Origin: a virus
Taxonomy: Duplodnaviria > Caudoviricetes
DNA length: 60,420 nt
Strand: one strand, 5' to 3'
IMG/VR virus record: IMGVR_UViG_3300032225_000805
Span: 1 to 60,420 of that record
Made by a program: the position numbers and the translations under genes. Below, in pieces: positions 2 to 56,209 of the stretch; within the stretch, counting starts at the first letter, position 1, and each line of letters starts with the position of its first letter. Below the pieces are notes generated by a model. The model saw only the letters and a program-made list of their open reading frames with translations, was not told the origin of the DNA and did no database searches.

Positions 2-3000
2 TCTGTTAGCAATCAGAAGAAAGCATTCGACTTTATTAAAGAAAGAATGGCTATCGAACAAGAGGTTAAGGGGAAGGATGAGAGTTTAACATTAGCAAAA
101 AAACAAAGAATAACTGAAATAAATAAACAACTTCAAGCTATTAGCTTAGAAACAGTAGCAGCTGTTGACAATGCCAAAGTTGGAACCGCTAACGCAGAAG
201 CAGCTCTTGCTGACATAGAAGCAAAAAAAGCTGACGTAGAAAAAAGAAGACAAGAAGAGTTAGGGGGTGCTGGTATAGTGGTAGATACGAGAACAGATAA
301 AGATTTTGCAAATGAAAAAGAGTTATATAGGGTTATTGTAGGAGATGAAGCATTTAACGATATTGTAGAAAGTGGTGTAGTTAGAGTTGGCCTATCTCAA
401 GAGTCTAAAGATAATGCAGAAAAAGCCGCTAGTGAAGGCGGAATAAATTTAGACAGAAGAGGAACTACTCCGTCTCCGTCTTTTGCAAAAGGCAAAGCTG
501 CAATGGGTTACGCAAAAGGGAACCCAAATAATTACATTATTGTTACCGAAGATGCTTCTTTACAACCATCGACTTTAGGAAGGCATGGTAAAGGAGATAC
601 AATGTTCCCAACAGACACGAATGGGAAACATCTGAAAGAACTAGATGGGAGTAAGGTAAAAGTATATAAGCATATTGGTGATGGTAAGTATGAATTAGTT
701 TATGCAAATGGTAAATTAGTAAATTCAAGCGATGCTGAATTTAATATAAATAAAAAATACGATGCAGAACTATCTACACTAGAAACACAGAAACAAGAAA
801 TAATAAACAATCAAAAAAACACACAAGGAAATGCCACTACACAGAAGCAACAGCAACAACAAGAAGGTACAGCAAAAGACAATCTCGGACAACGTGAGGG
901 AGCTGTACAAGGACAACAAAAAGATGGGAAAGGAAAAGGGGAACAACGGAGTACCGAGAACAAGGGAGCAGATAATAGCGATAGCAATCAACCAAGCGAG
1001 GAACAGAAGGTAACAGAGCTAAGAGCAGCAGAACAAGCAGAACTTGATACTAAAATACCAAACGCAGAGCAGTACAGAGTAAATGGTAAGGTAGATAGAA
1101 CCAAGCTTACAAACGATACAGATAGAAAGGCATTCGATGAGGTTTATGCTAAATATGATAAGTTAATTACGCCATTACTAGAAAGCGCAAAGCCTAAGAC
1201 AGTGTTTGACTCGTTGCCAACAGGGATAAAGGCTTCAGAAGGACAGCCTACAAGTAAGTCGCATGCCACTTTGTTTGCAGCCGCAAAGAAATCATTGAGT
1301 GCATTAAACGAAATATTCCCTAACCTAGATATTCACTTCCATGAAAACAGCGATGACTTTCAAAAGGTTTTAGATGCTACAGCAGGTGGCAGAAAGGCTT
1401 CCACTACGGATGGTAATTTTGCATACATAAAGGACAAGGATGGCAATTATACTGTTCGTATAGATATTAACTTATCTAATCCAAATGCTTCGGTTACAAC
1501 GGTTATCCATGAGGCTATACACCCTATACTACTATCAGAGTTTGGTGAAAATCCTAAATACTTTGAATACCTAAAAAATCAAGTAGCAAAGAGTGTTGGG
1601 TTTACTAAAAATATAAAGTTAAAAGAATTTATAAAGGCCTATAGCGACATAGAGCAGCCAGAAGAGTACCTTGTACAGTTAGGAGCAATATTAAAAGATA
1701 AAGAGAAAATAGAACCTAACGTATTTAGACGTATTGCTGAGGCTATCAATAAGATAGTCCTAAGGGTTACCAAAGGTAAACTTAAACCATTTGAGGATGT
1801 TAAAGACAGCAATGAAACGGTTAGATACTTTTCGTCTTTAGTAGAGGCTATTAGGACTGGTGACTTGAGCAAAACAAAGCTACGTTCACAGTCACAAGAA
1901 GCTGGGGCTCCAATGATGGGTTCCAAGCAATCAAGGGGTGGTCTTACTGCAACCGACATGAAGTCTATGACGGTTGCCGACAATGGTGACCTATTGTTCT
2001 TCCACTACGGTGACATTAAGGGGTCTAAGGTAGACGCAAGAAAAGGAACACCAAAAGCATACACAACCGACAAGCGTGTGTACACAACAAACTACTACTA
2101 CACTAACGAGAGCGATAGAGAGGGAATGGTTAGCGGAAAGGTAAACGTAGTAAGGGTACCTGCCGATAAGGTATATAGCTTTAACAAAGATGTCTTAGGG
2201 TTGTTTGATGAGGCTAAGAAAAACTCAGAGGCTCAATCAAAAGGCCAAGCATTTTCTCCTAACAGACAGGCCGATTTTATTGCCCAACTAGCAGCAAAGA
2301 ATGGGTTTGATATGATGGTGGCTAAGTGGGGTAATGGATACCGTGCTGAGTCTCCTAAGGCTCTTCCTATTGACGCAGCGTTGACTAAGCAGATGCGAAC
2401 CAATGGAAGTCTGTCTACCGCTGCTGTAGATGATAAATTAAACCAAGACATATACAATGCAGCTGCATCTAAAGCAAATGGCAACAGTGAGAAGTACAGA
2501 AGCGCATTTTATGGGATAAAAGATATTACCGCTAAGGACATTATGGAGCATCCTATTTTGTCAAGAGGTATTCCTAAGAGACTAGCAGATAAGTATAATA
2601 TCGGACAGGTTAGGTCTAAGCAGTCGAGAAGTAGTAATGAGGATATAGTATCTGCATCTGTAAATGTAGCTCCATTATATAGCACAAAAGTAAGCAATGT
2701 AGGACAAGCTGAATTAATTCATAATTCTGAACTATATAAAAGATATAAAAATAATAATGAAAGATTAGCTAAAATGTTTAATCTTAAAGTTATAAGTCAA
2801 GGAGATGGTGTTGGTGGCTATGAATTTTCAAATGGCGATGCCGTAATGGAAGCAACTACTGTAGTTAATGTAAGAGGTAAATTCTCAGACATTGTTAATT
2901 ACGCAGCAGTAGTTGGGGCTTTAGCTCCAGAAGTACAAGATGCTACTATTGCAGGTATGCATGTTGATGAAAATGATGAAAATCATAATGCAGATAGAAT

Positions 3001-6000
3001 AGCTATTGGAGTAGATAATGTAGATGCTGCAATGAAGGCTGCGGAGGACTCAGGCTTTGATAGAGATGGATTTACGTTAATAGATAATGAAATTTCATTC
3101 TTTGATGTTTTCTTTGACCCAAAAGGAAGTAAAAAACAAAAAGAAAAAACAAAAGATTTTAAAAATAAAATTGATATCTTTGAACAAAAATATATAGAAT
3201 ATGGAGGAAAAATTACTAGCCAATCAAAAAGGGCAGTCAGAAGCGAATACATCGACAATACAACGAGAAGGGACATTATCTCAAAGATTAGAAGCTCAGG
3301 GATACAGTACGGATATGATAGGTCAGGGCTTCGTGATGCACTTGCCAAGGCCGAAGAGAGAAACACAAGATACACAAGCTGGAAGTACCTTGACAAATCA
3401 GAAACAGCAAAAGAATACAGAAATTTAAGACAGCTTCAATTTGATGCTGCGGCTAATGGTACATCAATAACAGATGCCCAAAGAAAAAGAATATCTGAGC
3501 TTGAAAAACGTATGTCTAAGATTTTATCTACTACGTTTAAGTCAGATGCTAATGAATACGAAAAAGCCAAGTTAGAAGTAGATGCAATTGCAAATGATGT
3601 TGCTGGTCTAGTTGAGGATGGATATAAATCAGAATTTCCAATAAAAAGACCATCAAGAGCAGCTGTCAAAACAGTTAGATGGTATAGCTCGCAGCCTAAT
3701 TTACTAGGTGATGGAGCAAGAGCAAATGTAGTTGTAAATACCGATACTGATGCTGACTTCTTGTATGATGGATTATTAACAAGATTTCCATCACCTACAG
3801 AAAGAAATGAGAAAGCAAAAACAGAATTAGGCTATCCAAAAAGGTTAATAGAAATAAAAACCAGCAATGGTAAATTAGCTGAAATCCAAGTTATGACTAC
3901 GCAAGGATACTTAGCTAAAGATGGAGTTAAGTATTTTCCTGAAGATGCAAAATCTAAAGCAGCTGATTCATTGAAAGAAGTTAGAGGTAGATTAGGTTGG
4001 GAAATACCAGATGGCATAGGCCATTACTTCTATGAAATACATAGAGACCCAAATGTATCAAAATCATTAAGAGATGAAGCAGAGGTAGTTAGTAATAAAT
4101 ACTATGATGCATTCTTAAATAAAGATTCAAAACTTACTGATGCTGAATTTAGAGCAGATGTACAAGCATTTAAAGATAATGTAGATAAAGCCAATAAGTC
4201 AAATTGGGATGAAGGTAATACTGGAGAATCACCTAAAGAGTTAGATACATATTTAGCATCGGAAGGTAATCAAATCAAATCTAAACAGTCAAGAGTATCT
4301 GACATATTAAATGATACATTTAATCAAGAAGCTAAGAAAACAAAAATAGATAAACTAGATGTAAAAGCATTAGCTAGAAAAGTTGTTGATATAGTTAAAT
4401 CTAGTAAACTATATACACAGACAGATGACATCGAAAGAGAGAATGCAATCATTGACTTCTTAAAGAGTAAGGGCATTGTTCAGAAGAGGGTCATTGAACC
4501 TAGGAATAAAAATATAATTTCTGTAAACGAAGTTACGGCATTAAAAGACCAGATAAGACTAGAGATAAAGGCTGCCAATGATGGAGCTAAGTCTATTGAA
4601 GATGCGGTTAAAAAAATTGGAGAAATAATAAAAGGTTTAGCTAAAGGGAAGAAGATATCTGTAACATCTGCAAAGGCCTTGATTAATAAGTTCAGTAACA
4701 TGAACACAGCTAATAAAGACTCTGTCAATAGTATATTAGACTATGCTGAAAAGATATTCAACGATGCAGAGTACGCAGACAAAGTATCCCAAGTAAAGGC
4801 TCTAAATTCATTGATGAGGAGGGTTAAAAACAATGACAAGATACCTTCTGCAACTAGGTCGATAGGCGTTAGCTTTGCTAAAATAAACCCAGAGGCTGTG
4901 TCTGACATTGATGCACACTTAGAGGCCGCAAAGAAAATAAAAGATGCCTTAGTTGGTGTAAAAGAAAATGGAGTAAAGATAAGAAAAGCTATAGATATCA
5001 ATGCTATGGCAGACTACCTTAAAACTGCTATGGCAGAACAAGACGCCTATGATGCAAAGAATCCTACCACCACTAGAGTCGTAGAGCCATTAGATGAAGA
5101 AAAAGCTTTAGAGTACTTGGCAGCTGAACATGATAGTTTATTGCAGGCTGCAAAGGCTGTAGCCCCTAGCGCTGTTTTAACAGATGCAGAGATGGCTCAA
5201 TTGAAAAACTTCTTGAAGTTATCTATTGATGACTTTGAGACTATGGCTGAGAAGATAGCAGCGGTGGAGGCACTTGACAACTTTGTAAAAAATGCTGACA
5301 TGGGCAAGATTCCATTTATTTTAAATAACCAACAGGTAAATGCAAATATTAATAGAGGAGTTAAGGCTATCATGCCTAAGCTATCAAGCATGAGTTTAAT
5401 GTGGTTTAGCGAACAGAAAGCTAAGATAAGAGGGTGGTTTGACAATAAGACTTGGTATAGAGATAGCCCAAAAGACTTTAGTAAAACATTAGCTTACTTC
5501 ATGAATCAATCAATTAGAAGGGTAGATAACTTAATTGGCAATTTCAAAAACTATGATGTATTTAATAATACATTCAAATCACTGGCTAGTGGATATGCAA
5601 AATACTTATTTAAAATAAACTCAATGGATGCCGATGTTATATTCCAAAAAGTATTATCGTCATTTAATGGAGACATGTACAAAGCAGTGCAGCATTGCTA
5701 TAAAATGACAATGTATAAATTGCAATTAGAGTATGAATCTAATATTGGTAACAGAGAAGTAATACCTGCAATGATGCATCTTGAAAAAACATTGAAAGAT
5801 GGTAATTTAACTAAAAAAGATAAAGCTGAATTAAGAAAATTAATTGAAGAATTTTCTACAACAGATGCAACTACTGGAGAAGTAAAAATAGATACAGAAA
5901 AAATATGGGATAGCTTTAATAAAGTAGAACAAAAAGCGGCTGAAACACTAGCTGATTATTATGCTAAACTTACTCCATACGCTAAACATGTTGCAGTTTC

Positions 6001-8344
6001 TCTTAGAGGGGTTCCATTTAATCCAAGAGCAAATTACATGATGTTAAATGTAATAAATCAACAATCATCTTTATCTGCTACACCTCCAAGCGCTTCACAA
6101 GTGTTTACCAAGGGAAGTACTAAGGCTGGAACTATTATAGAAAGAGATGGTACGGCTCATGCAGTATCTCTTGACCCATATAATACATTTAATGCTGCGA
6201 ACAGAGATGTTATGATGGATTATTGTTTATTAAATCCAATAAAAACTGTTGAGGCTATATTTAAAAAATTAGTAGAGGATACGGCTAATGATGAGAAAGC
6301 TAATGATGTTGCAAAGTCACTAGAGTTTATTTTTAATGAGATAACAGAATCTATTATAAATAGAAGCTTTGTAATGTCTGATAAAGTATGGACTGATGTA
6401 TTTAATTTTATAAAGAAAGTTGGTGCCAGATACATGCTTGCTAAGATAGACAAAGCCCCAGCCGAGTTTGCAGGTAACGCAATTTTTGCTGGTATTGCAT
6501 ATACTGAAAATATATTAGAGGGGATAAAAAATAATGCATACCAAAGAAACTTTGAGTTATCACAAGCTATGGAAGCTCTTGATAGCTATAGCATTGATAG
6601 ATTATACCCACATAAAGGCCAATCTGGAGCATTCTTAGACCCTAATAGTTTTGATATAGATGTAAGAGACAAGAAGCACTTTATTGATGGCGCTAGTAAT
6701 GTCGCTCAAGTAGTGTATTATAATTCACTTTTACAAGCACAAAAAGGTGGAGAAGCAGTATCAGACTTTTTAGTTACTGCACCAGATTTAGCTGTTGGGA
6801 GAATGGCTTGGGAAGGAACATTGAGATTGGAATTTAAAAAAGAAACTGGTACTGAAATAGATTTAGAAAAAGTAATTAAAAAAGATTATGATTACTTAGA
6901 GAAATATAAAGATGCATTAGATAAAGCTACAACAGAGGCAGATAGAGTTATTGTTGATATAGCAAGTAGTAAAAATCCATTTGTAGGTATGGCTAAGGAA
7001 TCCGTTAGAAGAGATTATAATAGCTTTATGACTAGTATTGATGGATTTTTAAGGTCGTTTTCTAAAAATGAAAATCAGGTAGGTATGGATGCAGCGTATG
7101 CCCTTATAAAAAGTGGGAAGATAGATAGAGCAAGAGGTGTTAGATTATTGGCAGCTATCTTAGCGAGAGGAGGGGTATATAATTCTGTTAGAGCAAAGGT
7201 ATTATTACTTTTAACAGGATTAGGTTTTGCTATTGTAAATGGCATAACAGGTGGTGATGATTCGGAAGAAAAGAGAAGAAGAAGAGCAAGGTTACAACTT
7301 GAATACATGAACGTAGAGGGTGATGATTGGGCTGAAAAATCACCAGTAGTTGCTGGAAAGAAAATTTTATACGCAGGGAATATATATGAAGTTGTAACAG
7401 GAGGTATAACATCTGCTAACCCACCTTCAGATACGTCAGGTAAGATAATAACAGATGGCACTGCTAAGTATAAGTGGATTGGCACTATACCTAGGATACA
7501 AGGAAGTATTACTGGTATAAAAGATAACGTGAGCATGGGCAACTCTTTAAGAACTTATGATAAGCAATTTATAGAGAAAGCAAAGAAAGCAGCAGCACCA
7601 GAAGAAACAATGGCTCATTCATTTAATAAAGGTGCAGCTCAGTCAGCTGTAGGTATTATCTTAGGTAGAAACTCTGGAGCTATATTTAGTAATTTATTTA
7701 TGGCACCAGCTGTTGAGTATGCTAATGAAAAATTCATTCATCCAGCAATGTCATCTGACCCATACGATAAGTATAGAGATGGGATAATGTATTCAAAGAT
7801 GATTGATAGAAGTAGAAAAGACCCAGAGTTAAATTTCATTATAGATAATACTGGTGTTTTTAATCCATTCTTTAAAGCAGCTGTAACTGGATATAGAATG
7901 TTTGATAATAAATATGGAGATAGATTGAGAGAGCTTAATAAGAAGATTGAAGCCCACGAGAAAGGAGTTAAGGTTCCAAGAGAAGAGTCTTCTAAAGAAA
8001 AGTACTATGGATTTATAGCAGAGAGAGATGCTTTGTTGGAGAAACAAAAACCTGTAAAAGCAATGATGGCAAAAAATATAATAATTGCAGCGTTTACTGT
8101 AACAGGCGTATTACCTTCAGGTAAAACCATTGATGCTATTGCAGATAAAACTCTTCAAGACAAGATACTATCGCCTTCTGATATGGATGATATCATTAAG
8201 AAAATAGAAGATGCAAGGAATTATAGTGGAGGAGGCTCTGTTAGGCTAGAGAATGCTAAAGAGAATGATAAGGTTTTAGTCTACCCAGATATATACACAG
8301 ACTACACACTACAAGGCAGAAAAATACCAGCGAAGAAGCCTTAG
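2..8344 (+). CDS. Giant multidomain (polyvalent) virion/ejection protein, C-terminal part, 5' truncated
   Basis: Frame is open from nt 2 (SVSNQKKAFDFIKERM...), so ATG 47 is probably internal. Contains HEAIH zincin motif (1508-1522), RelA/SpoT-like motifs (3640-4050), three SKQSR motifs and a long helical C-terminus. Confidence 0.8.
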   Translation, partial: SVSNQKKAFDFIKERMAIEQEVKGKDESLTLAKKQRITEINKQLQAISLETVAAVDNAKVGTANAEAALADIEAKKADVEKRRQEELGGAGIVVDTRTDKDFANEKELYRVIVGDEAFNDIVESGVVRVGLSQESKDNAEKAASEGGINLDRRGTTPSPSFAKGKAAMGYAKGNPNNYIIVTEDASLQPSTLGRHGKGDTMFPTDTNGKHLKELDGSKVKVYKHIGDGKYELVYANGKLVNSSDAEFNINKKYDAELSTLETQKQEIINNQKNTQGNATTQKQQQQQEGTAKDNLGQREGAVQGQQKDGKGKGEQRSTENKGADNSDSNQPSEEQKVTELRAAEQAELDTKIPNAEQYRVNGKVDRTKLTNDTDRKAFDEVYAKYDKLITPLLESAKPKTVFDSLPTGIKASEGQPTSKSHATLFAAAKKSLSALNEIFPNLDIHFHENSDDFQKVLDATAGGRKASTTDGNFAYIKDKDGNYTVRIDINLSNPNASVTTVIHEAIHPILLSEFGENPKYFEYLKNQVAKSVGFTKNIKLKEFIKAYSDIEQPEEYLVQLGAILKDKEKIEPNVFRRIAEAINKIVLRVTKGKLKPFEDVKDSNETVRYFSSLVEAIRTGDLSKTKLRSQSQEAGAPMMGSKQSRGGLTATDMKSMTVADNGDLLFFHYGDIKGSKVDARKGTPKAYTTDKRVYTTNYYYTNESDREGMVSGKVNVVRVPADKVYSFNKDVLGLFDEAKKNSEAQSKGQAFSPNRQADFIAQLAAKNGFDMMVAKWGNGYRAESPKALPIDAALTKQMRTNGSLSTAAVDDKLNQDIYNAAASKANGNSEKYRSAFYGIKDITAKDIMEHPILSRGIPKRLADKYNIGQVRSKQSRSSNEDIVSASVNVAPLYSTKVSNVGQAELIHNSELYKRYKNNNERLAKMFNLKVISQGDGVGGYEFSNGDAVMEATTVVNVRGKFSDIVNYAAVVGALAPEVQDATIAGMHVDENDENHNADRIAIGVDNVDAAMKAAEDSGFDRDGFTLIDNEISFFDVFFDPKGSKKQKEKTKDFKNKIDIFEQKYIEYGGKITSQSKRAVRSEYIDNTTRRDIISKIRSSGIQYGYDRSGLRDALAKAEERNTRYTSWKYLDKSETAKEYRNLRQLQFDAAANGTSITDAQRKRISELEKRMSKILSTTFKSDANEYEKAKLEVDAIANDVAGLVEDGYKSEFPIKRPSRAAVKTVRWYSSQPNLLGDGARANVVVNTDTDADFLYDGLLTRFPSPTERNEKAKTELGYPKRLIEIKTSNGKLAEIQVMTTQGYLAKDGVKYFPEDAKSKAADSLKEVRGRLGWEIPDGIGHYFYEIHRDPNVSKSLRDEAEVVSNKYYDAFLNKDSKLTDAEFRADVQAFKDNVDKANKSNWDEGNTGESPKELDTYLASEGNQIKSKQSRVSDILNDTFNQEAKKTKIDKLDVKALARKVVDIVKSSKLYTQTDDIERENAIIDFLKSKGIVQKRVIEPRNKNIISVNEVTALKDQIRLEIKAANDGAKSIEDAVKKIGEIIKGLAKGKKISVTSAKALINKFSNMNTANKDSVNSILDYAEKIFNDAEYADKVSQVKALNSLMRRVKNNDKIPSATRSIGVSFAKINPEAVSDIDAHLEAAKKIKDALVGVKENGVKIRKAIDINAMADYLKTAMAEQDAYDAKNPTTTRVVEPLDEEKALEYLAAEHDSLLQAAKAVAPSAVLTDAEMAQLKNFLKLSIDDFETMAEKIAAVEALDNFVKNADMGKIPFILNNQQVNANINRGVKAIMPKLSSMSLMWFSEQKAKIRGWFDNKTWYRDSPKDFSKTLAYFMNQSIRRVDNLIGNFKNYDVFNNTFKSLASGYAKYLFKINSMDADVIFQKVLSSFNGDMYKAVQHCYKMTMYKLQLEYESNIGNREVIPAMMHLEKTLKDGNLTKKDKAELRKLIEEFSTTDATTGEVKIDTEKIWDSFNKVEQKAAETLADYYAKLTPYAKHVAVSLRGVPFNPRANYMMLNVINQQSSLSATPPSASQVFTKGSTKAGTIIERDGTAHAVSLDPYNTFNAANRDVMMDYCLLNPIKTVEAIFKKLVEDTANDEKANDVAKSLEFIFNEITESIINRSFVMSDKVWTDVFNFIKKVGARYMLAKIDKAPAEFAGNAIFAGIAYTENILEGIKNNAYQRNFELSQAMEALDSYSIDRLYPHKGQSGAFLDPNSFDIDVRDKKHFIDGASNVAQVVYYNSLLQAQKGGEAVSDFLVTAPDLAVGRMAWEGTLRLEFKKETGTEIDLEKVIKKDYDYLEKYKDALDKATTEADRVIVDIASSKNPFVGMAKESVRRDYNSFMTSIDGFLRSFSKNENQVGMDAAYALIKSGKIDRARGVRLLAAILARGGVYNSVRAKVLLLLTGLGFAIVNGITGGDDSEEKRRRRARLQLEYMNVEGDDWAEKSPVVAGKKILYAGNIYEVVTGGITSANPPSDTSGKIITDGTAKYKWIGTIPRIQGSITGIKDNVSMGNSLRTYDKQFIEKAKKAAAPEETMAHSFNKGAAQSAVGIILGRNSGAIFSNLFMAPAVEYANEKFIHPAMSSDPYDKYRDGIMYSKMIDRSRKDPELNFIIDNTGVFNPFFKAAVTGYRMFDNKYGDRLRELNKKIEAHEKGVKVPREESSKEKYYGFIAERDALLEKQKPVKAMMAKNIIIAAFTVTGVLPSGKTIDAIADKTLQDKILSPSDMDDIIKKIEDARNYSGGGSVRLENAKENDKVLVYPDIYTDYTLQGRKIPAKKP

Positions 8345-9815: not shown

Positions 9816-11423
9816 TTAATTTAATTTATATTTAGTTCTTAATTCTTTTTGCCATTCTGGGTAGTTATATAATCCAATGCTTACTGTTACTGAGTCATCC
9901 GTTCTAGTTACATGCTTAGATATATGCTCTATCGCTAAGTAGACATGATATACGCTGTAGCAAATAAAGTAAACAATGTTATGGCTTGACATCTCTGGGA
10001 GTGTTATTTTTTGGTATTCAGTAAGTCTTCCATTGTTCATCTTCAACTCTAAGCCAAAAAAGAAAGATGTGTTATCAAAGAAAACAGAATTATCTGGCAA
10101 CCCATTCTTAGATGCAAAATGTATCCATCTGCCATCCTTAAACATCTTACCACTATTCTGTCTCCACCAGTAGTACCCAGTCTTCTTCAAGAAGTTGTTT
10201 ACATCTTCCTGAAGCTCTGACTCATCTCGATAAATCTTACCTTCATATAAGTCAAGCAAAGATGAAATCTTTTTTAGATATATAAGTTTTTCTTTTGTTA
10301 TACTGTTTTTTATTTCAGCTACATTGTCCTCTATACTCTTAATCCCAATCTCTCTATCTATAACTCTACCAAGCTGCTTCTTATGCTTAAACTCCTTACG
10401 CTTGTCTGGCATGTCATGCTCTTCAACATTCCCACAGAAGTCTAACAGGATGCAGTCTTTCTTCCCATCACTTAGTCTGATGCCTCTACCAGCACATTGA
10501 ATGTATTTACGCCATGATTTAGTCCCCATTGCCAACATTACACACGATATCGTGGGCTCATCAAACCCAGCAGTAAGTATCTCGATACTGAACACACCTT
10601 TTATCTTTCCTTGCTTCAGATTTTTTAATATTAATGCTCTATCATTATCCGTGGTTTCAGATGTTATAACAGCAGATGGCACCCCAAAGGAATTAAACAT
10701 AGAACATAAATCAATGCAATGCTTTTTATTTACACCAAAGCAAACAAACTTTCTATCTGATGCGTATTCCAAATAGTTTGATAGTATACTGTTGTTGATG
10801 TCATCCTTGTTGATAATGCCCTCTAACTCTTCTGTGTTATAATCTGAGCCGCTTATCTTAACGCTACTCAAGTCAATCCTAAATGGCGCTAATACAACGA
10901 ATGGAGTAAGCCAACCCAGAGATATTAAGTCTCCTGTTTGGTACTTACTTACAATCGAGTCAAACCCTTCTAGCAGGTATCCATCAGATGTAACTGGCGT
11001 TGCAGATAGACCAATAAATATAGCATTCGGAAACCTATCAAACAAAGACTGCGTTAGGTTACCTTCGTAGGAGTAGTGTACCTCGTCTATTATCACAATG
11101 TCTGGGGCATCTATATCCGTATCAATCACCGTCTGTAGCGTTGCAACCAAGCACCTATAGTTTGCATGTTCTTTGGTTGAACCCTGTAGGTAAGACACTG
11201 GTAGGTTGCCAAACACATCTCTCGACTGCTGTGCTAATTGTATTCTATGGTTTGTAAACAATACCCTCTTTCCTCTCTTCACCGCTCCATCTATCATTGA
11301 GTAGCTTATAATAGTCTTCCCAAACCCAGTAGGCGCATGTACCAATATCTTTTTGTCTCCAGCAGATATCCTTTCCCTTATTAGGTTTAGGATGTCTACC
11401 TGCGGTTCTCTTAACTTATACAT
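9816..11423 (-). CDS. SF2 DExH helicase fused to C-terminal VRR-NUC (PD-(D/E)xK) nuclease
   Basis: APTGFGKT, DEVH, SAT, GFD and QCAGRGIR helicase motifs, followed by ESELQ..GLPD..LELK..GRLTEYQ. Confidence 0.85.
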   Translation of the reverse strand: MYKLREPQVDILNLIRERISAGDKKILVHAPTGFGKTIISYSMIDGAVKRGKRVLFTNHRIQLAQQSRDVFGNLPVSYLQGSTKEHANYRCLVATLQTVIDTDIDAPDIVIIDEVHYSYEGNLTQSLFDRFPNAIFIGLSATPVTSDGYLLEGFDSIVSKYQTGDLISLGWLTPFVVLAPFRIDLSSVKISGSDYNTEELEGIINKDDINNSILSNYLEYASDRKFVCFGVNKKHCIDLCSMFNSFGVPSAVITSETTDNDRALILKNLKQGKIKGVFSIEILTAGFDEPTISCVMLAMGTKSWRKYIQCAGRGIRLSDGKKDCILLDFCGNVEEHDMPDKRKEFKHKKQLGRVIDREIGIKSIEDNVAEIKNSITKEKLIYLKKISSLLDLYEGKIYRDESELQEDVNNFLKKTGYYWWRQNSGKMFKDGRWIHFASKNGLPDNSVFFDNTSFFFGLELKMNNGRLTEYQKITLPEMSSHNIVYFICYSVYHVYLAIEHISKHVTRTDDSVTVSIGLYNYPEWQKELRTKYKLN

Positions 11424-11426: not shown

Positions 11427-13784
11427 TTAATTGTTGAATATTATGTGGCGACCTAAGTGGTCTCTTGACTCTGTAGGCTCTTTCTTGTACTTGAACACAG
11501 CAAACACAGCAAGCCACTTGTAAAACTTTTGTTGCGATAAGCTTTGTCTACCTCGTACTGAGAAGTCTGGATACTCCTCAACAAAGTTGTTGAACAGCTG
11601 TGACTTGCTAATCTTTACATTTGGTATGATTGGGTCTAGCGCATCGTCTCTTAATTTATCTATAATCCACTCGTAAAAAGAATGGTCTGTCTCTGAAATA
11701 AACTTTCTTGTCTCGATGTTATTAAAGCTGCTTGTTACAAGTCCTCTAGTTAAGAATAATTGTAAACAACCTATCATGTAGTTGTCAAACTTAATCCAAT
11801 CTTCCTTATCCCAACTAGCAAACAACATCCTACCAAAGTCTTGCTCAGGTGTGAATGACATATTATAGAACTGCTTGAACTCTAATTCCCATCTTCTTCT
11901 GTTATTAGAATTACCATTACCCTTGATAGCATAGTTTGTTGTGATAATTATTTTTGGAGATTTATCCATTGGTATCTTGATGGCATCTTTATTTTTCTTC
12001 TCCAACGTGATACCCTCTGTAACAATACTGAATAATCTTTCAAACTCAAAGTTTTTTCTTACATCATCAAATATTAGTAGCTGTGTGTCAGCACTCACTA
12101 GCTGATAAGGAAATGTTTTATCGAATGCAAATGCCTTACCATCTATAACTACACCCTTCTTCATCTTGTTCAACGCAGAAACAAATATACCCTTACCAGT
12201 ACCGCCTTCTGGGTGTTCACTAATAACCTCATCGTTTATTATCACAGCAGGGCAGTACCCTAAACTCTTATGGCTATGTAACAAAAATCCTATCGTTGAC
12301 TTTATGGATGACTCTCTGTCATCTCCACCTGAAATATTTGAAACAAACTTTCGATAGTCACAGTCAACATTATCGCTAATGAAGAAGTCTCTGTCAATTA
12401 TTTGCTCCTTCCATACATGGCTACCTAAGTCTATGTAGTCAATAATATCAATTGAGTTTTTATTAATTTTTGTAACGCAGTTCTTAAAGTATAGGAATGC
12501 ATAGTCCTTAGTATCTTTAGCAAACTCTGGCTTAACTGTAGCAATCATGTTAAGAAAGTCATCCTTAAAAAATCTAGTGTTGTCAGCAAAGTAGTTATAG
12601 ATAGACATATCCTTTCTATTCATCAAATATGCAAGAATAAAGTCTTTTATTTCATCCTCGCTAGAATTATATAAAATATTATTAATAAGCCTAACATACA
12701 CATAGTTGTTGCTGCCATCAGGATAGTACTTGAAGAACCCATGCTCTTCAATAAATGCTTTAAATAAATTATGAGTTATCTTTAGTGCACCCTTATCTGT
12801 CTTCGACCAGAATACATTACATTCCTTCTCAGCCGTTTCGATTGCATTATTAATTTCATCATCAGAAATATCTGCCTCCTGCAACTTTGCTCTTACCTCT
12901 CTTTTTGGGGCACCACTATCTATGATTGCCTTTACTTCATTTATCTTTTTGGTATCCTCAAAAAACTTAGTATTATATGCATCTGTTTTTCTATACGCAC
13001 TAGTAATCGTATTGTTTATCTCAGCAGTAGAAAAATCTTGCTGCGAGTAATTACTCATCGCATACTCAGCTAGACTCCTATCAATACCAAATTCATTGAA
13101 TGCCATTGCTAGGATGTAGATATTTTTATTACGCTCTCCTTTAACCAATCCGTAATCTCTCTCCCACCATATCTTTAATCTTCTAATAATCTCTGATGAG
13201 TCATTAAGCCTGATTGACTGGCTATCGTTTGTGTGGACTGCATATTCTTTTTCTGCTTGCTCTTCCCATACACTGCTGTTTTGGTTTATGTGAATATTTG
13301 GGTCATACGACTCGTAACACACCCTAGATATGTTGCAGCTAGATACATCAAAGTTATGGCTATTGTAGTGTCGTTTTAGCGCATTGAAATACAACTTGTG
13401 GTTCTCTATGTCTTTTGGTATTCTTACGAGAACCTTGAGTCCATCACCGCTTGGAGACATGAATACAGAGAATGTATATGCATCCTCTTTTAGTTCCTCC
13501 ATGTACATTTCCAATGCTAGTGTAGACTCAAAGTTATCGAAGTCAAGACATACAAATCCGCTGTGAGCCGTTACCGATTTATCATTACGCTTAGTAAACT
13601 CTCCGCAGAAACAAATGGCAGGTAATCCTTTCTTTAATAAGTCCCTAACCTCTTTGTCTGACTCGGCTCTAATCTTCTCTACTAAATCTTTCGACTTGCC
13701 AGATTTAATTCTATCCAAAACATCCTCGACATTTCTGTAAAAAGGCGTAGACGTGTCACTTAATGTTTTGAATATTGTTACCAT
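11427..13784 (-). CDS. Primase-helicase (VirE N-terminal/BT4734-like primase, PriCT, SF3-like helicase)
   Basis: KKGLPAICF.G.F, HSGFVCLDFD, SPSGDGLK, GERN, GTGKG Walker A, FDD Walker B, ITTN. Confidence 0.85.
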   Translation of the reverse strand: MVTIFKTLSDTSTPFYRNVEDVLDRIKSGKSKDLVEKIRAESDKEVRDLLKKGLPAICFCGEFTKRNDKSVTAHSGFVCLDFDNFESTLALEMYMEELKEDAYTFSVFMSPSGDGLKVLVRIPKDIENHKLYFNALKRHYNSHNFDVSSCNISRVCYESYDPNIHINQNSSVWEEQAEKEYAVHTNDSQSIRLNDSSEIIRRLKIWWERDYGLVKGERNKNIYILAMAFNEFGIDRSLAEYAMSNYSQQDFSTAEINNTITSAYRKTDAYNTKFFEDTKKINEVKAIIDSGAPKREVRAKLQEADISDDEINNAIETAEKECNVFWSKTDKGALKITHNLFKAFIEEHGFFKYYPDGSNNYVYVRLINNILYNSSEDEIKDFILAYLMNRKDMSIYNYFADNTRFFKDDFLNMIATVKPEFAKDTKDYAFLYFKNCVTKINKNSIDIIDYIDLGSHVWKEQIIDRDFFISDNVDCDYRKFVSNISGGDDRESSIKSTIGFLLHSHKSLGYCPAVIINDEVISEHPEGGTGKGIFVSALNKMKKGVVIDGKAFAFDKTFPYQLVSADTQLLIFDDVRKNFEFERLFSIVTEGITLEKKNKDAIKIPMDKSPKIIITTNYAIKGNGNSNNRRRWELEFKQFYNMSFTPEQDFGRMLFASWDKEDWIKFDNYMIGCLQLFLTRGLVTSSFNNIETRKFISETDHSFYEWIIDKLRDDALDPIIPNVKISKSQLFNNFVEEYPDFSVRGRQSLSQQKFYKWLAVFAVFKYKKEPTESRDHLGRHIIFNN

Positions 13785-19919: not shown

Positions 19920-20276
19920 TTATTTTTGTTTTGTTTCGTTATACCATGTTATGAATTGTACTACTCCTAAATAGGTAGTTATTTTTTTATTGTTAGGAGG
20001 TATATCTGTTCTTCTCATTGACACAATGTGTTCATCACAATGTTTCATAGGTTGGCTTATAGTAAGGAAATTATGCTCACCATTTCCCGATAGTTCTGTT
20101 ACAAATCCTAACTCTTCAATTTTTTCAACTACTGCCATTAGCCAATTCCAATCTGTATCAAATGATAATATAGTCAATGGTGCTTCACCTTCTTTATACC
20201 AATATGTCGTATTTGGATAATATGGGTGTGGTTGTGAGTATCCCATAAAGTTTGCGATTAATTTGTTGTTTTCCAT
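19920..20276 (-). CDS. Hypothetical early protein (paralog of 18898..19194)
   Basis: NKLIANFMG...WNWLMAVVEKIEELG. Confidence 0.7.
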   Translation of the reverse strand: MENNKLIANFMGYSQPHPYYPNTTYWYKEGEAPLTILSFDTDWNWLMAVVEKIEELGFVTELSGNGEHNFLTISQPMKHCDEHIVSMRRTDIPPNNKKITTYLGVVQFITWYNETKQK

Positions 20277-20293
20277 TTTGTTTTATTTTTGTT

Positions 20294-20440
20294 TTAGTTA
20301 ATTAAGTATTCAATGTTTTCAATGTTATAGAGTGACTCATCTACAGCCACTCCGTTGATGTGCATTTGATTATCAGGACTGAATCCGAACTCATACACCT
20401 TGTTGTTGGCTATCTCTACTGCCACATATTTATTCTCCAT
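20294..20440 (-). CDS. 48-aa hypothetical protein (not in ORF track)
   Basis: MENKYVAVEIANNKVYEFGFSPDNQMHINGVAVDESLYNIENIEYLIN; fills an apparent gap. Confidence 0.6.
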   Translation of the reverse strand: MENKYVAVEIANNKVYEFGFSPDNQMHINGVAVDESLYNIENIEYLIN

Positions 20441-20663
20441 TTTGTTTACGTTTGATATTTATTTGTTCAATTATTTGATATTTATTTCTAAGTGGCAATT
20501 CTACCCATTCGTTACAAATAGAATCGAGTAGTGATTCAACTTCATCATTCTCTAACCCATATAAACAATATCCAAATTGTGTTTCCAATTCATCAAATGT
20601 CATTGAGCCAAAGAAGGTGTATAATTCCTCCTCTAATTTTATAATTTTATTTAGTAAATTCAT
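20430..20663 (-). CDS. Acidic hypothetical early protein
   Basis: 77-aa ORF. Confidence 0.6.
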   Translation of the reverse strand: MNLLNKIIKLEEELYTFFGSMTFDELETQFGYCLYGLENDEVESLLDSICNEWVELPLRNKYQIIEQINIKRKQNGE

Positions 20664-20699
20664 TTTATTTAATTTTTGTTTTATTTATGATTGTGAATG

Positions 20700-21035
20700 T
20701 TAATATGCCGATACAGGTCTGTTTTGGTTTTCCTCGAATGTTGCAGACTCCCATTCGTCCTCATCATGGTTGGTCAATTCATGGAAATATTTTTCCAATT
20801 GTAGTGCCAATGCCTCCAACTTTCTTGCCTCTGTAGTAGTGAACGATGTCCTGAAGATGTTATGGTTTGTCTCTATTCTGCCTAGCATTCCTCCACCTAG
20901 ATAGTTTTGGTAGGCGCTCATCCTACTACCATGTTTGAATCCAAATTTTGCAAGGTCTATCTCTATTCCTCCACCTCTATGGCTTATCTGTTGCCTAGTA
21001 ATTGATTCCTCAATTTTGTTTCTGTAATTTCTCAT
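20700..21035 (-). CDS. Hypothetical early protein
   Basis: 111 aa; AYQNYLGGGMLG motif. Confidence 0.65.
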   Translation of the reverse strand: MRNYRNKIEESITRQQISHRGGGIEIDLAKFGFKHGSRMSAYQNYLGGGMLGRIETNHNIFRTSFTTTEARKLEALALQLEKYFHELTNHDEDEWESATFEENQNRPVSAY

Positions 21036-21052
21036 CTTGTTTTATTTTTGTT

Positions 21053-21349
21053 TTAGTTATTTATAATTTTTATGTAATCGTAATCGTTGTATACTACTAT
21101 TAAATCAAAGTCAATATCGAAATCTCCTAGAAATCCTGCAATTAAGTTTAGATTTACTTTAGAAACGTATACGCTAAATTTCTCATCATACAGAAAGTGT
21201 ATATCGTAGACTGCATCCGTTTCAAATGCATTCCATTCATCCAAATCATTAAATGATAATTCAATATTGTAGGAAATTCCATTTACATTGTGTAGTATGG
21301 TAGCCAATCTAAGTATTGGATTAGCTACTATTTTTATTTTTTCTTTCAT
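21053..21349 (-). CDS. Hypothetical early protein
   Basis: 98-aa ORF with AAAACAAG-ATG leader. Confidence 0.6.
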   Translation of the reverse strand: MKEKIKIVANPILRLATILHNVNGISYNIELSFNDLDEWNAFETDAVYDIHFLYDEKFSVYVSKVNLNLIAGFLGDFDIDFDLIVVYNDYDYIKIINN

Positions 21350-21371
21350 CTTGTTTTTATTTTGTTTTAAA

Positions 21372-21881
21372 TTACATTAATTTTTGAATTACATTAACGA
21401 ATGCAGAGTCATTGCATAGTTCATCAATATTGTTAAAAAAAGTTTCTTTATAGTGACTTGTTAAGTAACACGCTAATTTTTTAATTGTAGTTCTTTTCTG
21501 AATACTAGTAAAATTGTTAATGGATACATGGTAGCTATCGGTTACATATCGAATCCTAAGATTATTATCTCTGCATTCTTTGTCTTTCCTTCGTATAGTA
21601 ACATAGTATCTATCTATAATAGCCTCAATACCTACTCCATTTAGACTTTCATTTAGCCTATCTGCATCCTCTTTTACTCTTTGGATATTAAGCGACTCAA
21701 TATGTTCATTATTTAGTCTTATTTCAGCCATTAACTTTTCTTCCTTTTTAATTTTATCGAACACTATGTCTGTGTTGAACAACAGATTATTTTTGTTGTT
21801 CTTTTTAACATCGTTGATTCTATCAAATTCGTTGATGATTGAGTTGATAATCTTTGTTTGATTTTCTGTTAAATTTTTCAT
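21372..21881 (-). CDS. Hypothetical early protein
   Basis: 169-aa ORF with AAACAAG-ATG leader. Confidence 0.65.
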   Translation of the reverse strand: MKNLTENQTKIINSIINEFDRINDVKKNNKNNLLFNTDIVFDKIKKEEKLMAEIRLNNEHIESLNIQRVKEDADRLNESLNGVGIEAIIDRYYVTIRRKDKECRDNNLRIRYVTDSYHVSINNFTSIQKRTTIKKLACYLTSHYKETFFNNIDELCNDSAFVNVIQKLM

Positions 21882-21924
21882 CTTGTTTAATTTTTGTTTA
21901 TTTTACAATATAATTATTCGTTGA

Positions 21925-54126: not shown

Positions 54127-54390
54127 ATGGAAAATTTACAGTACCAAAAAGAAGTAAGCAATTACATAGACAATTTAGTAATCAAATTACAAAAGGATTG
54201 CCCTGAAAAAAGCATCTCAAGAAACCAATTTAAAAATGCTGTGCTAACTTTTACAAGTGAAAAGGAACTAAATGATTACTTAGTTTTTTCAGCTACGCAA
54301 GCGGTAAGTATCAAGGATGCATTTATTTGTGCTGATGCTTTTTTTGAATTACGTTGGGCAAAATTAGTTGAACTAATAGACAGTATTTAA
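54127..54390 (+). CDS. Hypothetical protein (possible fibre chaperone)
   Basis: 87-aa ORF ending the fibre cassette. Confidence 0.55.
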   Translation: MENLQYQKEVSNYIDNLVIKLQKDCPEKSISRNQFKNAVLTFTSEKELNDYLVFSATQAVSIKDAFICADAFFELRWAKLVELIDSI

Positions 54391-55172
54391 TGGCATATAC
54401 AGTAGCATATCAGCCCTCGGTAGATGGATTTACTTCGTTCTATAGTGGCATACCAGAGATGATGATTGGTATGAATAATTATTTTTATACCTTTAAGAAT
54501 GGTCAAATATGGAAAGAATATCTTGGTATAAGGGGTAACTACTATGGGACTCAGTATGGTAGCTCTATCAGAATATCACAAAACAATTCACCAAACGAGG
54601 TGAAGATTTTTAAGACTATATCTTTTACGGGTGATATTACAGAGGGCGAAATATCGTCATCGTTAATGACAGCGTATCTTGGGGACAGGGCATACACAGG
54701 GTATATATCGGCAAATGAGTTTGTGAACAAAGAAGGTGAGCTATTTTGTAGCATTAGAAACAACTCTGAAGGCACAGCAGAGACTGGGTCAACAATGGTC
54801 GACAAGGGTGTTGGAGTGTTGGCTGCAATAAAGGCAACTAACTCATACGAGATTATTACCAATGAGTCATTGACCATTATAACTGGCATCAACTCTACAT
54901 CTGGAACCACACTGTTTTACTATAGCGGAACAACGCTTAATGTCATAGGGTATATATCTAGCATGGAAAAAACGAATAGTGGTTATATCATAAACACCTA
55001 TGCATCTGCATTAACCCCAACGGTAGGAAGCATAATCGGAACACGGGTAAGTTCAAAGATTGAAAGCTACGGACTTAGAGGCAACTACAATATATTAGAT
55101 ATAAATATCAACTCCACAAATGCGGTGGAATTATTTTCCGTTCAGTCGAATATAATCAAATCTTTTCCTTAA
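54390..55172 (+). CDS. Tail nozzle/stabilisation protein, C-terminal part
   Basis: TVAY.....GFTSFYS..PE.MIGMNNYFYTFK.G, K.FKTI, F..KEG, ESYGLRG.Y, ELFSV.S....S. Confidence 0.7.
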   Translation: MAYTVAYQPSVDGFTSFYSGIPEMMIGMNNYFYTFKNGQIWKEYLGIRGNYYGTQYGSSIRISQNNSPNEVKIFKTISFTGDITEGEISSSLMTAYLGDRAYTGYISANEFVNKEGELFCSIRNNSEGTAETGSTMVDKGVGVLAAIKATNSYEIITNESLTIITGINSTSGTTLFYYSGTTLNVIGYISSMEKTNSGYIINTYASALTPTVGSIIGTRVSSKIESYGLRGNYNILDININSTNAVELFSVQSNIIKSFP

Positions 55173-55588: not shown

Positions 55589-56209
55589 ATGGGAGTAGAA
55601 TTAGCAGCCGTAGGGCTAGGACTAAGCGCAATACAAGGTGTAGCTGGATTAGTCCAAGAAAAGAAAGCTAGACAAGCAGCTGAAGCATCATACAATAACC
55701 TAAAGAATATGCCAAAACAAGCCAACGCTATGAATGCAGTTGGCGTTCCTGTAAACATGTACGACCAAGCACAGGCTAACATTAACCAGCAGTCAGCAAA
55801 CATGATAGATGCAGCTAGAGAGTCTGGGGCTGCTGCTGTACTGGGAAGCGCTGGAACCATTCAGGGTGGTATAAAAAACGCTGAGATGGACTTAGCAACC
55901 AGAAAGGCACAAGATGCACTTAATTTAAGCTTAGAGAAGCAAAAGACTCAACAGCAAATAGACAGCGACTACTATAACTTCCAAAGACAGCTAGAGGCTT
56001 CTCAGATGGAGGGTGCTCAAACAGCCGCAGCTCAGGGGGCTACCCAGTTCCAACAAGCTCTTGGTGGGGCTACTCAAAACTTAACGTCTTTAGGTGTTGC
56101 TAAATATACTGGAACAGGTGCTGGTGGAAGTTCAAATCCAGTAGATATGTCTGGAGTAAATAATTTTAATTTTTTAACAGGCGTTGGTGGTAAAAAGAAG
56201 AAAAAATAG
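55589..56209 (+). CDS. Internal virion (ejection) protein
   Basis: A/Q/G-rich helical protein, first of three genes of increasing size. Confidence 0.65.
   Translation: MGVELAAVGLGLSAIQGVAGLVQEKKARQAAEASYNNLKNMPKQANAMNAVGVPVNMYDQAQANINQQSANMIDAARESGAAAVLGSAGTIQGGIKNAEMDLATRKAQDALNLSLEKQKTQQQIDSDYYNFQRQLEASQMEGAQTAAAQGATQFQQALGGATQNLTSLGVAKYTGTGAGGSSNPVDMSGVNNFNFLTGVGGKKKKK

Follow-up and report, generated by a model that had tools for sequence, protein, structure and literature searches.

The window, that is the whole stretch of 60,420 nt analysed here, is a nearly complete podophage genome (about 99%) of Elemovirus-like type, linearised within its largest gene. The genes for terminase and portal, the other structural PHROGs, a gene with the crAss muzzle-protein C-terminal domain (54390..55172, plus strand; Pfam crAss_MUZ_C, E 1.3e-10) and a gene weakly similar to the T7 internal virion protein gp14 (55589..56209, plus strand; Pfam T7_gp14, E 3.3e-4, 21 bits and so under the 27-bit Pfam cut-off) are all found upstream of this giant gene. 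A 358-aa gene between the portal and capsid genes (40975-42051) carries no annotation. The gp14-like gene is followed by a 472-aa ORF (56224-57642) and then by the giant gene. In T7 the order is gp14-gp15-gp16, where gp16, of 1318 aa, includes a transglycosylase but no effector array. As in that block, the largest gene comes after a gp14-like gene closing the structural module and has hydrophobic segments in its arms, and by its place in the gene order it corresponds to T7 gp16. The phage appears to be a Flavobacterium-type podophage, with the giant protein probably internal to the virion.

The giant gene is present in two parts, both on the plus strand: 57661-60420, which encodes the N-terminal 920 aa (P0002) and runs off the contig end, and 2-8344, which is open at its 5' end and encodes the remaining 2780 aa (P0001). 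The first-pass annotation had given its extent as 300-4300, which is corrected here. Judged against the relative P0008, about 117 aa are absent at the contig join, as P0002 is 91% identical to P0008 aa 1-917 and nothing in the window corresponds to P0008 aa 918-1036; the whole protein would have roughly 3,800 aa. Giant homologs (n=102) range from 1792 to 4731 aa, and the Elemovirus homolog, of 3694 aa, is annotated as 'structural protein'. The predicted layout includes conserved N- and C-terminal regions with hydrophobic segments, a zincin-type metallopeptidase (HEAIH...EE) and, after it, putative effector cassettes that are unrelated to each other. A hydropathy scan found a single hydrophobic segment in P0002 (aa 780-800) and two in the conserved C-terminal region (aa 2400-2418, nt 7199-7255, and aa 2687-2705, nt 8060-8116). 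This region (P0001 aa 1432-2780, 4295..8344; all features numbered on P0001 lie on the plus strand) is 57-96% identical across about 1300-1360 aa in eight close relatives, and parts of it are 21-29% identical in distant relatives, Elemovirus included. The assignment to the phage polyvalent proteins is supported by a fold match (E 1.4e-7) with proteins named 'Large polyvalent protein associated domain' and by the account of such proteins in the available part of PMC5512222.

The zincin-like metallopeptidase domain (aa 405-628, 1214..1885) contains HEAIH (aa 503-507, nt 1508-1522) and, downstream, EEYL (aa 554-557, nt 1661-1672) with invariant E554/E555, as well as an invariant His447 at the end of a strand; in 19 sequences, H43, H99, E100, H103, E150 and E151 are invariant. 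In the AlphaFold2 model the order is a helix, three strands, the HExxH helix and a later helix with the Glu, in keeping with the original reading of a zincin motif at these positions just before the first junction. The fold matches of the region are weak (M10 peptidase, E 0.085, prob 0.91; SprT, E 0.11, prob 0.97; collagenase, prob 0.16); none is significant against PDB, where the best E is about 0.09, and there is no Pfam match, MPTase-PolyVal included. The zincin signature is present, and peptidase activity is predicted from it.

The peptide SKQSR is found exactly three times, each in the plus-strand frame of the giant ORF, and none of the six frames of the window has a further copy. Copy 1 (aa 641-645, 1922..1936, codons TCCAAGCAATCAAGG) is at the junction between the zincin and cassette A, copy 2 (aa 872-876, 2615..2629, codons TCTAAGCAGTCGAGA) between cassettes A and M, and copy 3 (aa 1427-1431, 4280..4294, codons TCTAAACAGTCAAGA) where cassette M gives way to the conserved C-terminal region; the three copies and their different codons agree with those first noted. 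The number of copies expected from composition is 0.002. However, some 5-mer occurs at least three times in 54 of 5000 protein shuffles, so the window by itself is suggestive and not overwhelming; that the motif is real is settled by the comparative data, because SKQS is invariant in relatives. AlphaFold2 also places the motif at domain boundaries, as first proposed, with all three copies below 50 pLDDT. Copy 1 falls in the sole internal segment below this value, 15 residues between two folded domains in a two-domain model (model residues 225-239 = aa 629-643). Copy 2 is at the ends of both its models and copy 3 at the end of the cassette M model (model residues 551-560), where low pLDDT is partly expected. 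The models therefore put the motif in flexible linker, internally for copy 1.

SKQS does not vary across 41 distinct 20-residue contexts from 12 close relatives and loci, with three to eight copies per protein, and each boundary between cassettes is a flexible linker with [EQ]-[IV]-[KR]-S-K-Q-S-[RKL]. Among 22 junctions, SKQS is encoded by 10 different 12-nt versions, the last Ser using both TCN and AGC codons, which bears out the early claim that the peptide rather than the DNA is conserved and indicates that selection acts on the peptide. When nine close relatives are split at SKQS, cassettes of exactly kept length and varying order are obtained: A is 231 aa in all nine, C is 200 aa and D is 355 aa in five each, and H is 484 aa in three, while pieces G and I are flanked by two SKQS copies just 20-27 residues apart. 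The upstream context IPSKEVIK-SKQS, for example, is joined to KTNNALKD, RTEDALKD or VTAWHGSP downstream. Two of the three sites interrupt the BLAST homology to relatives: at site 872 it ends at aa 881-889 in seven of eight close relatives (at 922 in the other), and at site 1427 it resumes at aa 1424-1431 in six of eight (at 1481 in two). Cassette M is also found in other lineages with the same start and end points. These fixed-length units in new combinations show, at the level of sequence, that relatives swap cassettes exactly at the motif, as had been suspected. In P0007, with eight SKQS copies, DUF3293, DUF3990 and ART-PolyVal are each in their own inter-motif piece by Pfam, the latter two each under the Pfam cut-off. 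The cassette profiles are mutually unrelated in hhalign (all at most 8%), except K with Q (60.6%) and H with the zincin (35.4%).

In distant relatives the junction motif takes a similar form, S-[KR]-[SAQ]-[QS], and distant lineages each have their own repeated junction peptides. These variants, picked out by eye, include PI-SKAQ (five copies, L014), SRSQ (four, L028), SKSQKGD (three, plus SKSQL, P0039), PKRQ (four, P0051 and P0058), KTKAGRT (three, plus RTKAGRT, P0034) and PQFS[KR] (P0009, P0014 and P0017). Giants with a zincin (n=163) contain the loose pattern [ST][KR][SAQ][QS] 361 times, where 181 are expected. The 91 giants without one, a set that includes contig fragments such as P0016 and P0087, contain it 76 times, where 87 are expected. 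The two-fold enrichment is thus seen only in homologs with the HExxH...E zincin (Mann-Whitney p 2.8e-6), so that motif and predicted zincin co-occur by a statistic that ignores shared ancestry. A junction motif follows the last helix of the zincin in nearly all of 27 viral loci. Where relatives lack the zincin, acidic linkers without a junction peptide come after the same RelA/SpoT domain; by a strict regex, the motif comes after RelA/SpoT in 5 of 31 zincin-bearing and 3 of 53 zincin-less proteins.

Cassette M (aa 877-1426, 2630..4279; AlphaFold2 pLDDT 88.4, pTM 0.82) comprises an N-terminal alpha/beta part (about aa 882-1098), long helices (about 1107-1201) and a RelA/SpoT nucleotidyltransferase (about 1208-1396). 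The RelA/SpoT-like unit of the first-pass annotation corresponds to the end of the 872-1427 cassette, and it is specifically Tas1-like: the top Foldseek match is Tas1 (6ox6_A, E 1.6e-6, TM 0.78 normalised to the target, 27% identity), followed by CapRel, Rel and SAS1, and a profile search against PDB matches about aa 1182-1368 to the Tas1 toxin domain (E 3.4e-8). The 'SAM-lyase-like' label for aa 877-1100 finds no support, as there was no PDB sequence match and the listed fold matches include nothing of this type. In relatives the two halves of cassette M occur apart from each other, and no motif is found between them, so not every domain boundary is marked. The domain would most likely synthesise (p)ppApp or (p)ppGpp. 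Tas1 itself (PDB 6ox6) is an effector that Pseudomonas aeruginosa delivers by type VI secretion, and it makes (p)ppApp, according to the available parts of PMC10083569 and PMC12691689. The two share a toxin domain by profile and fold and, as proposed here, a bacterial target; in contrast to Tas1, the proposed carrier is a phage protein and not a T6SS, and the alpha/beta domain and long helices precede the toxin domain, packed with it as one unit. An HD-type hydrolase was not found in the genome and no immunity gene was recognised; an injected Tas1-like toxin seems costly to a lytic phage.

Cassette A (aa 646-871, 1937..2614) is an alpha/beta domain outside named families. It has 287 matches (E<=0.001) among 1.84 billion representatives, mostly within giant proteins with a few stand-alone, and no Pfam family is matched by it or by the domain in 10 small relatives. 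The earlier 'ART-like' reading of 641-872 is weak: Foldseek gives matches to ART-PolyVal-like viral models (E 0.015-0.019), Pfam gives none, and the hhalign probability with the ART-PolyVal cassette of a relative is 0.5%. By its modelled fold, cassette A is possibly ART-like.

Here it is proposed, with about even confidence, that this is a polyvalent ejection protein cut at its junctions by its own zincin and working in the manner of MARTX toxins; cleavage, the identity of the protease and injection are inferred. The giant protein would be packaged in the capsid and exit together with the DNA. The embedded zincin would cut its own C-terminal junction first and the other junctions later, and the products would be the 231-aa cassette, possibly ART-like, and a 555-aa cassette with the Tas1-like RelA/SpoT pyrophosphokinase as its catalytic part. 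The freed cassettes might manipulate the host immediately, and the conserved arms would be left at the ejection conduit that spans the envelope. A recognition peptide that is short and lies outside the folds would let cassettes be exchanged as exact units. The scissile bond, the timing, packaging and ejection, and effector action are conjectural parts of this scheme.

MARTX toxins of Vibrio likewise have conserved N- and C-terminal regions around a strain-variable effector array, and their embedded protease cuts between effectors, freeing them in the target cell (available parts of PMC4453568, PMC6315884, PMC5218395 and PMC11296635), where here cleavage is proposed. As described there, they use an inositol-hexakisphosphate-activated cysteine protease, carry RTX-type repeats, are secreted by bacteria and have a eukaryotic target, in contrast to a zincin, a phage capsid as the proposed vehicle and a bacterial target. 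The likeness is in the mode of working only, with no claim of homology.

An unlikely alternative is that another protease, of phage head maturation or of the host after ejection, cuts the junctions, and that the zincin is an effector or a cell-wall peptidase aiding the conduit. Giant phages of the phiKZ/SPN3US type cleave their packaged ejection proteins at a short consensus motif with a prohead protease that has its own essential gene, and this enzyme processes many head proteins as the head matures (available parts of PMC5694885 and PMC10052503). For phi24B gp47 (2811 aa), a polyvalent ejection protein with LPD domains plus a metallopeptidase, which is abundant in virions and does not show in the cryo-EM map, and whose ejection has been proposed, the authors suggest a wall-degrading metallopeptidase, and the available part of that report mentions no processing or junction motif (bioRxiv 10.64898/2026.04.10.717836). 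Effector MPTases are also allowed in the available text of PMC5512222, and the window has unannotated ORFs, for example the 358-aa gene mentioned above. However, no protease gene of the phiKZ/SPN3US kind was found: the families S78, S77, ClpP and S49 have no match in the genome at E<=1, and no peptidase was detected with PHROGs and/or Pfam in 20 late-region ORFs and two replication ORFs (11427-13784 and 9816-11423). A prohead protease typically has several head proteins as substrates, whereas SKQS is confined to one protein and absent from all other virion ORFs in the window. The enrichment of the motif only alongside the zincin, which the first motif adjoins in nearly all loci, also argues against a separate protease.

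Similarly improbable is an uncut linker element, whether a docking or unfolding signal in packaging or tail passage, a modification site, or a requirement at the protein level that coincides with points tolerant of in-frame cassette recombination. The MPTase-bearing virion RNAP of N4 is packaged unprocessed (available part of PMC5512222), and boundary recombination alone would suffice for cassette exchange. Nevertheless, the DNA is conserved no further than the peptide demands, and the 10 codings with TCN and AGC serines make a recombination signal unlikely. A motif that recurs at each boundary, varies by lineage and is tied to a peptidase is what polyprotein processing sites look like, and the closely spaced SKQS pairs of pieces G and I are hard to fit as spacers between folds. 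A chance origin of three copies of a 5-mer in a long protein rich in lysine and serine, with coincidental boundaries, is refuted, the shuffles notwithstanding, by the composition expectation, the invariant SKQS contexts, the three to eight copies per protein and the fixed cassette lengths, and has a negligible probability.

Self-processing by the zincin, the preferred reading, agrees with previous predictions for polyvalent proteins, in which MPTase domains would free the other domains by autoproteolysis, either within the head or once injected (Iyer, Burroughs, Anand, de Souza, Aravind 2017, PMC5512222, available part). Those proteins are also late-gene giants joining RelA/SpoT, ART and DUFs with an HExxH...E metallopeptidase. 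In the available text no cleavage site or junction motif is named ('linker' occurs 0 times and 'cleavage site' in a reference title only), and the zincin and other domains found here fall below every Pfam PolyVal model. What is new beyond the known polyvalent proteins is a conserved, lineage-specific junction peptide that defines the boundaries, and the exchange of cassettes between them as exact units.

The giant gene of the window is carried on the plus strand by two open reading frames at the contig ends, P0002 (57661-60420, 920 aa), which is open at its 3' end, and P0001 (2-8344, 2780 aa), which is open at its 5' end; residue numbers refer to P0001 unless stated. P0002 aligns to residues 1-917 of the relative P0008 with 91% identity, and P0001 begins at P0008 residue 1037, leaving about 117 aa missing at the contig join (P0008 residues 918-1036 have no counterpart in the window). 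The frames at the contig ends do not join, as the reading frame stops at 60420 and the next one runs from base 2. From the alignments to P0008, both frames are parts of a single gene of roughly 3,800 codons that was split when the contig was linearised and lacks about 117 codons, and the IMG/VR record (60,420 bases, linear, completeness rating of about 99%) represents a permuted, slightly incomplete genome. The first-pass annotation had located the motifs of this gene correctly, including HEAIH (residues 503-507), EEYL (residues 554-557) and the three SKQSR copies (nt 1922, 2615 and 4280, each coded differently), and had taken the gene to be smaller than it is.

The late region lies on the plus strand, with the terminase, portal and structural PHROG families all upstream of the giant gene, which is preceded by a T7 gp14-like gene (Pfam E 3.3e-4, 21 bits against a cut-off of 27 bits) and then a 472-aa open reading frame. 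The gene order of T7 puts gp16 in the corresponding position. The named relatives in the phage collection comprise only 68 records, all Flavobacterium phages of the genus Elemovirus; megablast of the giant gene against this collection gave no match, and an Elemovirus homolog of 3694 aa, annotated as 'structural protein', matches parts of the giant protein. Hydrophobic segments are found solely in the conserved arms (P0002 residues 780-800; P0001 residues 2400-2418 and 2687-2705). A Gln/Gly/Lys-rich low-complexity spacer (residues 265-335, nt 794-1006) is located upstream of the zincin and differs in length among relatives. Elsewhere in the late region, the Crassvirus muzzle protein C-terminal domain crAss_MUZ_C (54390-55172, plus strand, Pfam E 1.3e-10) is present although the named Elemovirus relatives are not placed in the Crassvirales, which may point to a common tail or muzzle module. 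G+C is at its minimum (0.30, compared with about 0.36 for the window) at 20001-24000, in a block of small minus-strand open reading frames immediately preceding the change of strand near 24 kb.

The SKQSR copies 1, 2 and 3 lie at residues 641, 872 and 1427; a six-frame scan of the window shows no others, and the count expected from composition is 0.002. Some 5-mer occurred three times in 54 of 5000 shuffles, so in a single sequence the motif is only suggestive. The shorter SKQS is found in no other virion open reading frame of the window. Outside the giant gene it occurs only once, C-terminally in a small minus-strand open reading frame near nt 22787 (NKSKQSITI, then stop), and a role for it in the system was discarded as chance.

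The boundary idea was examined by comparison among relatives. A homology search with residues 420-1460 recovered 102 giant homologs of 1792-4731 aa, and the eight closest relatives (P0005-P0008, P0010, P0012 and P0013 among them) have 3-8 SKQS copies each, with a different sequence after every copy. BLAST homology to these eight stops at residues 881-889 in seven (922 in the other) and restarts at 1424-1431 in six (1481 in two); thus, copies 2 and 3 bound a 555-aa piece that is replaced as a whole. In other lineages, alignments of the same piece run from 869-879 to 1418-1434 for its five closest carriers (P0009, P0011, P0014, P0015 and P0017). When nine proteins were split at SKQS and the pieces clustered, the cassettes had exactly conserved lengths in varying order, including cassette A with 231 aa in all nine, C with 200 aa in five, D with 355 aa in five and H with 484 aa in three, as well as short pieces of 20 or 27 aa, all flanked by an N-terminal part of variable length and a conserved C-terminal part. 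In P0007, the Pfam domains DUF3293, DUF3990 and ART-PolyVal each occupy a separate inter-motif piece, and the giant proteins of the relatives together add DUF3293, DUF7178, ART-PolyVal and DUF3990, with ART-PolyVal and DUF3990 below the Pfam cut-offs in both cases. The exchange of cassettes at the motif, which the first-pass annotation had named as a check, is thereby borne out both by the exact-length units and by the BLAST breaks at copies 2 and 3.

The cassette profiles are mutually unrelated by hhalign, except for K with Q (60.6%) and H with the zincin (35.4%). In the latter case, columns 282-350 of cassette H (e.g., P0008 residues 2111-2589) align against columns 14-88 of the zincin profile, and judging from this profile match the cassette array may contain, in H, another zincin-like domain in degenerate form. 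For the giant protein of the close relative P0005 (4166 aa), the precomputed Pfam column contains PF01817, presumably chorismate mutase type II; a metabolic domain of this kind would be out of the ordinary for a cassette.

The junction has the extended consensus [EQ]-[IV]-[KR]-SKQS-[RKL] over 41 distinct contexts, and identical upstream contexts are fused to different downstream cassettes. A recombination signal acting at the DNA level was rejected as unlikely from the codon diversity of SKQS, which is coded in 10 ways over 22 junctions, with the last serine as both TCN and AGC; therefore, selection acts on the peptide. The modular, motif-bounded architecture is a solid conclusion.

In structural models, the motif lies in segments of low confidence. 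The AlphaFold2 model of residues 872-1431 (32-row alignment, pLDDT 88.4, pTM 0.82) falls below pLDDT 50 only at model residues 1-8 and 551-560, which are SKQSR copies 2 and 3. The model of residues 405-880 (38-row alignment from locus sub-segments, pLDDT 79.3, pTM 0.46) contains two folded domains joined by a linker below pLDDT 50 at model residues 225-239 (residues 629-643), which holds copy 1, and its C-terminal residues 469-476, holding copy 2, are also low. Copy 1, in an internal linker, is the clean case, while for copies 2 and 3, located at the ends of the models, some loss of confidence would be expected anyway. For the second model, an earlier alignment (A3, zincin-bearing giants and cassette A homologs) was discarded because the zincin was misaligned, with no homolog beyond the close relatives P0005 and P0010 covering HEAIH, and was replaced by alignment A5 from locus sub-segments.

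The putative peptidase next to copy 1, a zincin-like domain at residues 405-628, has H447, H503, E504, H507 and E554/E555 invariant in 19 sequences. Its modelled elements are, in model numbering, helix 15-31, strands 39-43, 67-73 and 79-86, helix 94-110 with HExxH and helix 149-161 with the Glu. The part of PMC5512222 available describes the MPTase core as an N-terminal helix, a three-stranded sheet, the HExxH helix and a later helix with the Glu, and an invariant His at a strand end for the phage-type MPTase; the zincin resembles this core in both element order and His position. No Pfam match was obtained for the zincin, including MPTase-PolyVal PF18818 (E<=1 on the protein and E<=10 for the genome), and the fold search of the zincin and cassette A model against PDB returned nothing below E 0.09. 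In BFVD, the zincin has weak matches to an M10 peptidase (E 0.085) and SprT (E 0.11), and its region has strong matches to proteins named 'Large polyvalent protein associated domain'. Searches of the complete 2780-aa sequence against Pfam and PHROGs were uninformative (Ntox34, E 0.12, and phrog_18125, E 0.0059). Against PDB sequences, phmmer matches for the zincin, for cassette A and for the N-terminal half of cassette M did not exceed chance level.

Beyond the close clade, 27 zincin-bearing viral loci were compared, and nearly all of them have a linker with S/T-[KR]-[SAQ]-[QS] directly after the final zincin helix. The junction peptide recurs downstream as PI-SKAQ five times in locus L014, SRSQ four times in L028 and [ST]RQQ twice in L035, and other lineages repeat SKSQKGD, PKRQ, KTKAGRT or PQFS[KR]. 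The candidate junction peptides of Elemovirus are TRQQ, SRFQ and VRMQ. In 33 locus proteins, the loose pattern was observed 111 times against 44 expected. A zincin HMM recognized 31 of the 102 homologs in a first pass and 45 after four iterations; therefore, many relatives truly lack the zincin or are fragments. With the iterated HMM used for sorting, the loose pattern occurs 361 times against 181 expected in 163 zincin-bearing giants, and 76 times against 87 expected in 91 zincin-less giants (Mann-Whitney p 2.8e-6), although the proteins share ancestry, so the occurrences cannot be taken as independent, and some of the zincin-less entries are fragments. The zincin-less relatives have the same RelA/SpoT domain followed by acidic linkers lacking the junction peptide. 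A strict regular expression after this domain separates the two groups poorly (5 of 31 zincin-bearing against 3 of 53 zincin-less) because the motif differs by lineage; the lineage variants at this position were read by eye.

Cleavage by another phage protease was considered. Six-frame searches for the prohead protease families S78, S77, ClpP and S49 gave nothing at E<=1 in a record in which about 1% of the genome is missing, and no peptidase was seen among the 20 late-region and two replication open reading frames scanned. These results, together with the lack of SKQS in other virion proteins, the co-occurrence of zincin and motif, and the first site being always beside the zincin, favour self-processing. 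Here it is proposed that proteolysis at the junction motif is probable, and that the embedded zincin is the enzyme responsible with roughly even chances.

In the cargo, cassette A (residues 646-871) has 287 matches in 1.84 billion representatives, mostly within giant proteins, and no Pfam family. It may be ART-like, judging from fold matches to ART-PolyVal-like BFVD models (E 0.015-0.019, probability 0.95-0.99, TM 0.29-0.39), next to a PDB fold match to MbcT with a probability of 0.41; Pfam gave no match, and hhalign against the ART-PolyVal cassette of a relative, a profile of one sequence, gave a probability of 0.5%.

The RelA/SpoT-like unit is supported in the C-terminal half of cassette M (residues 877-1426), which by Foldseek matches Tas1 (E 1.6e-6, TM 0.78 over the target, 27% identity), then CapRel (1.6e-4), Rel and SAS1. 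A five-sequence profile also matches Tas1 in PDB (E 3.4e-8, profile positions 51-237); Pfam RelA_SpoT (PF04607) gave no match. Homologs of this domain share the motifs IKRP-R-A-VK-RWY, GDGAR and AEIQV-T with little or no variation; these presumably correspond to the basic ATP-binding motif, DxxGxR and ExQxRT of RSH synthetases, with Met or Ile here in place of the Arg of the last. The N-terminal half (residues 882-1098), previously called SAM-lyase-like, has no sequence match, so this name is without support: phmmer of residues 877-1131 against PDB gave only a chance-level match (imine reductase, E 1.5), and SAM lyase is absent from the fold matches listed for the cassette, which are mostly to the RelA/SpoT half. 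The two halves also occur apart, the first alone in P0096, P0097, P0100 and P0101 and the RelA/SpoT domain alone in more than 40 relatives. There is no junction motif between them (residues about 1100-1135, nt 3300-3400), and in the AlphaFold2 model they are packed together (pTM 0.82). The toxin-like half may be regulated by the other. An alarmone hydrolase (HD_4, HD), which might rationalise a Tas1-like cargo, was not found in the genome. In locus L006, a TAG codon lies in frame within the RelA/SpoT-like domain (10001-10858), at a position taken by Glu in the near relative L005 (FNS-stop-KRDE against FNSEKRDE); gene disruption, an error in sequencing or recoding could each account for it.

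The late-gene location of the giant protein and its combination of zincin, cassette A and cassette M agree with the late-location and multi-domain criteria for polyvalent proteins (Iyer et al. 2017). The part of PMC5512222 available predicts autoproteolytic release of fused effectors by MPTases, describes N4 vRNAP as packaged uncut and names no cleavage site. The accessible portions of the literature searched contained no defined cleavage site and no demonstrated processing for polyvalent proteins. From what is available of the preprint on phi24B (bioRxiv 10.64898/2026.04.10.717836), its 2811-aa polyvalent protein is proposed as an ejection protein, and processing is not reported there. As far as the excerpts available describe them, the closest analogue by way of working is the MARTX toxins (PMC4453568, PMC6315884, PMC5218395, PMC11296635), and the closest phage precedent is the processing of ejection proteins by the SPN3US prohead protease (PMC5694885, PMC10052503).

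Overall, the initial observation stands and is extended, and its interpretation holds in part; packaging, ejection, timing and effector activities of the giant protein are presumed here. A broader and more doubtful proposal is that, in a large podophage family with Flavobacterium-like hosts, the ejection protein at the gp16 position might be a self-cutting, plug-and-play effector injector, a viral counterpart of MARTX. The specificity of the zincin would drift with the lineage-specific junction peptide (SKQS, SKAQ, SRSQ, PQFS[KR], PKRQ, KAGRT and others), freeing interchangeable cassettes in the host at time zero, one of them here a Tas1-like alarmone synthetase.

A junction peptide that is conserved as protein, differs between lineages, goes along with the peptidase and bounds units of exact size makes the release prediction of 2017 directly testable. 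If the broader proposal is true, no processing site of a polyvalent protein would have been defined before this peptide, and sequence alone could serve to predict which mature proteins uncultured phages inject. The peptide also provides a rule by which giant metagenomic phage proteins, hundreds of them, can be divided into mature products. It shows a way in which phages may shuffle anti-host enzymes with their folds left undisturbed, and the presumably injected cargo of a phage is found to include a toxin domain like that of Tas1, a type familiar from warfare between bacteria.
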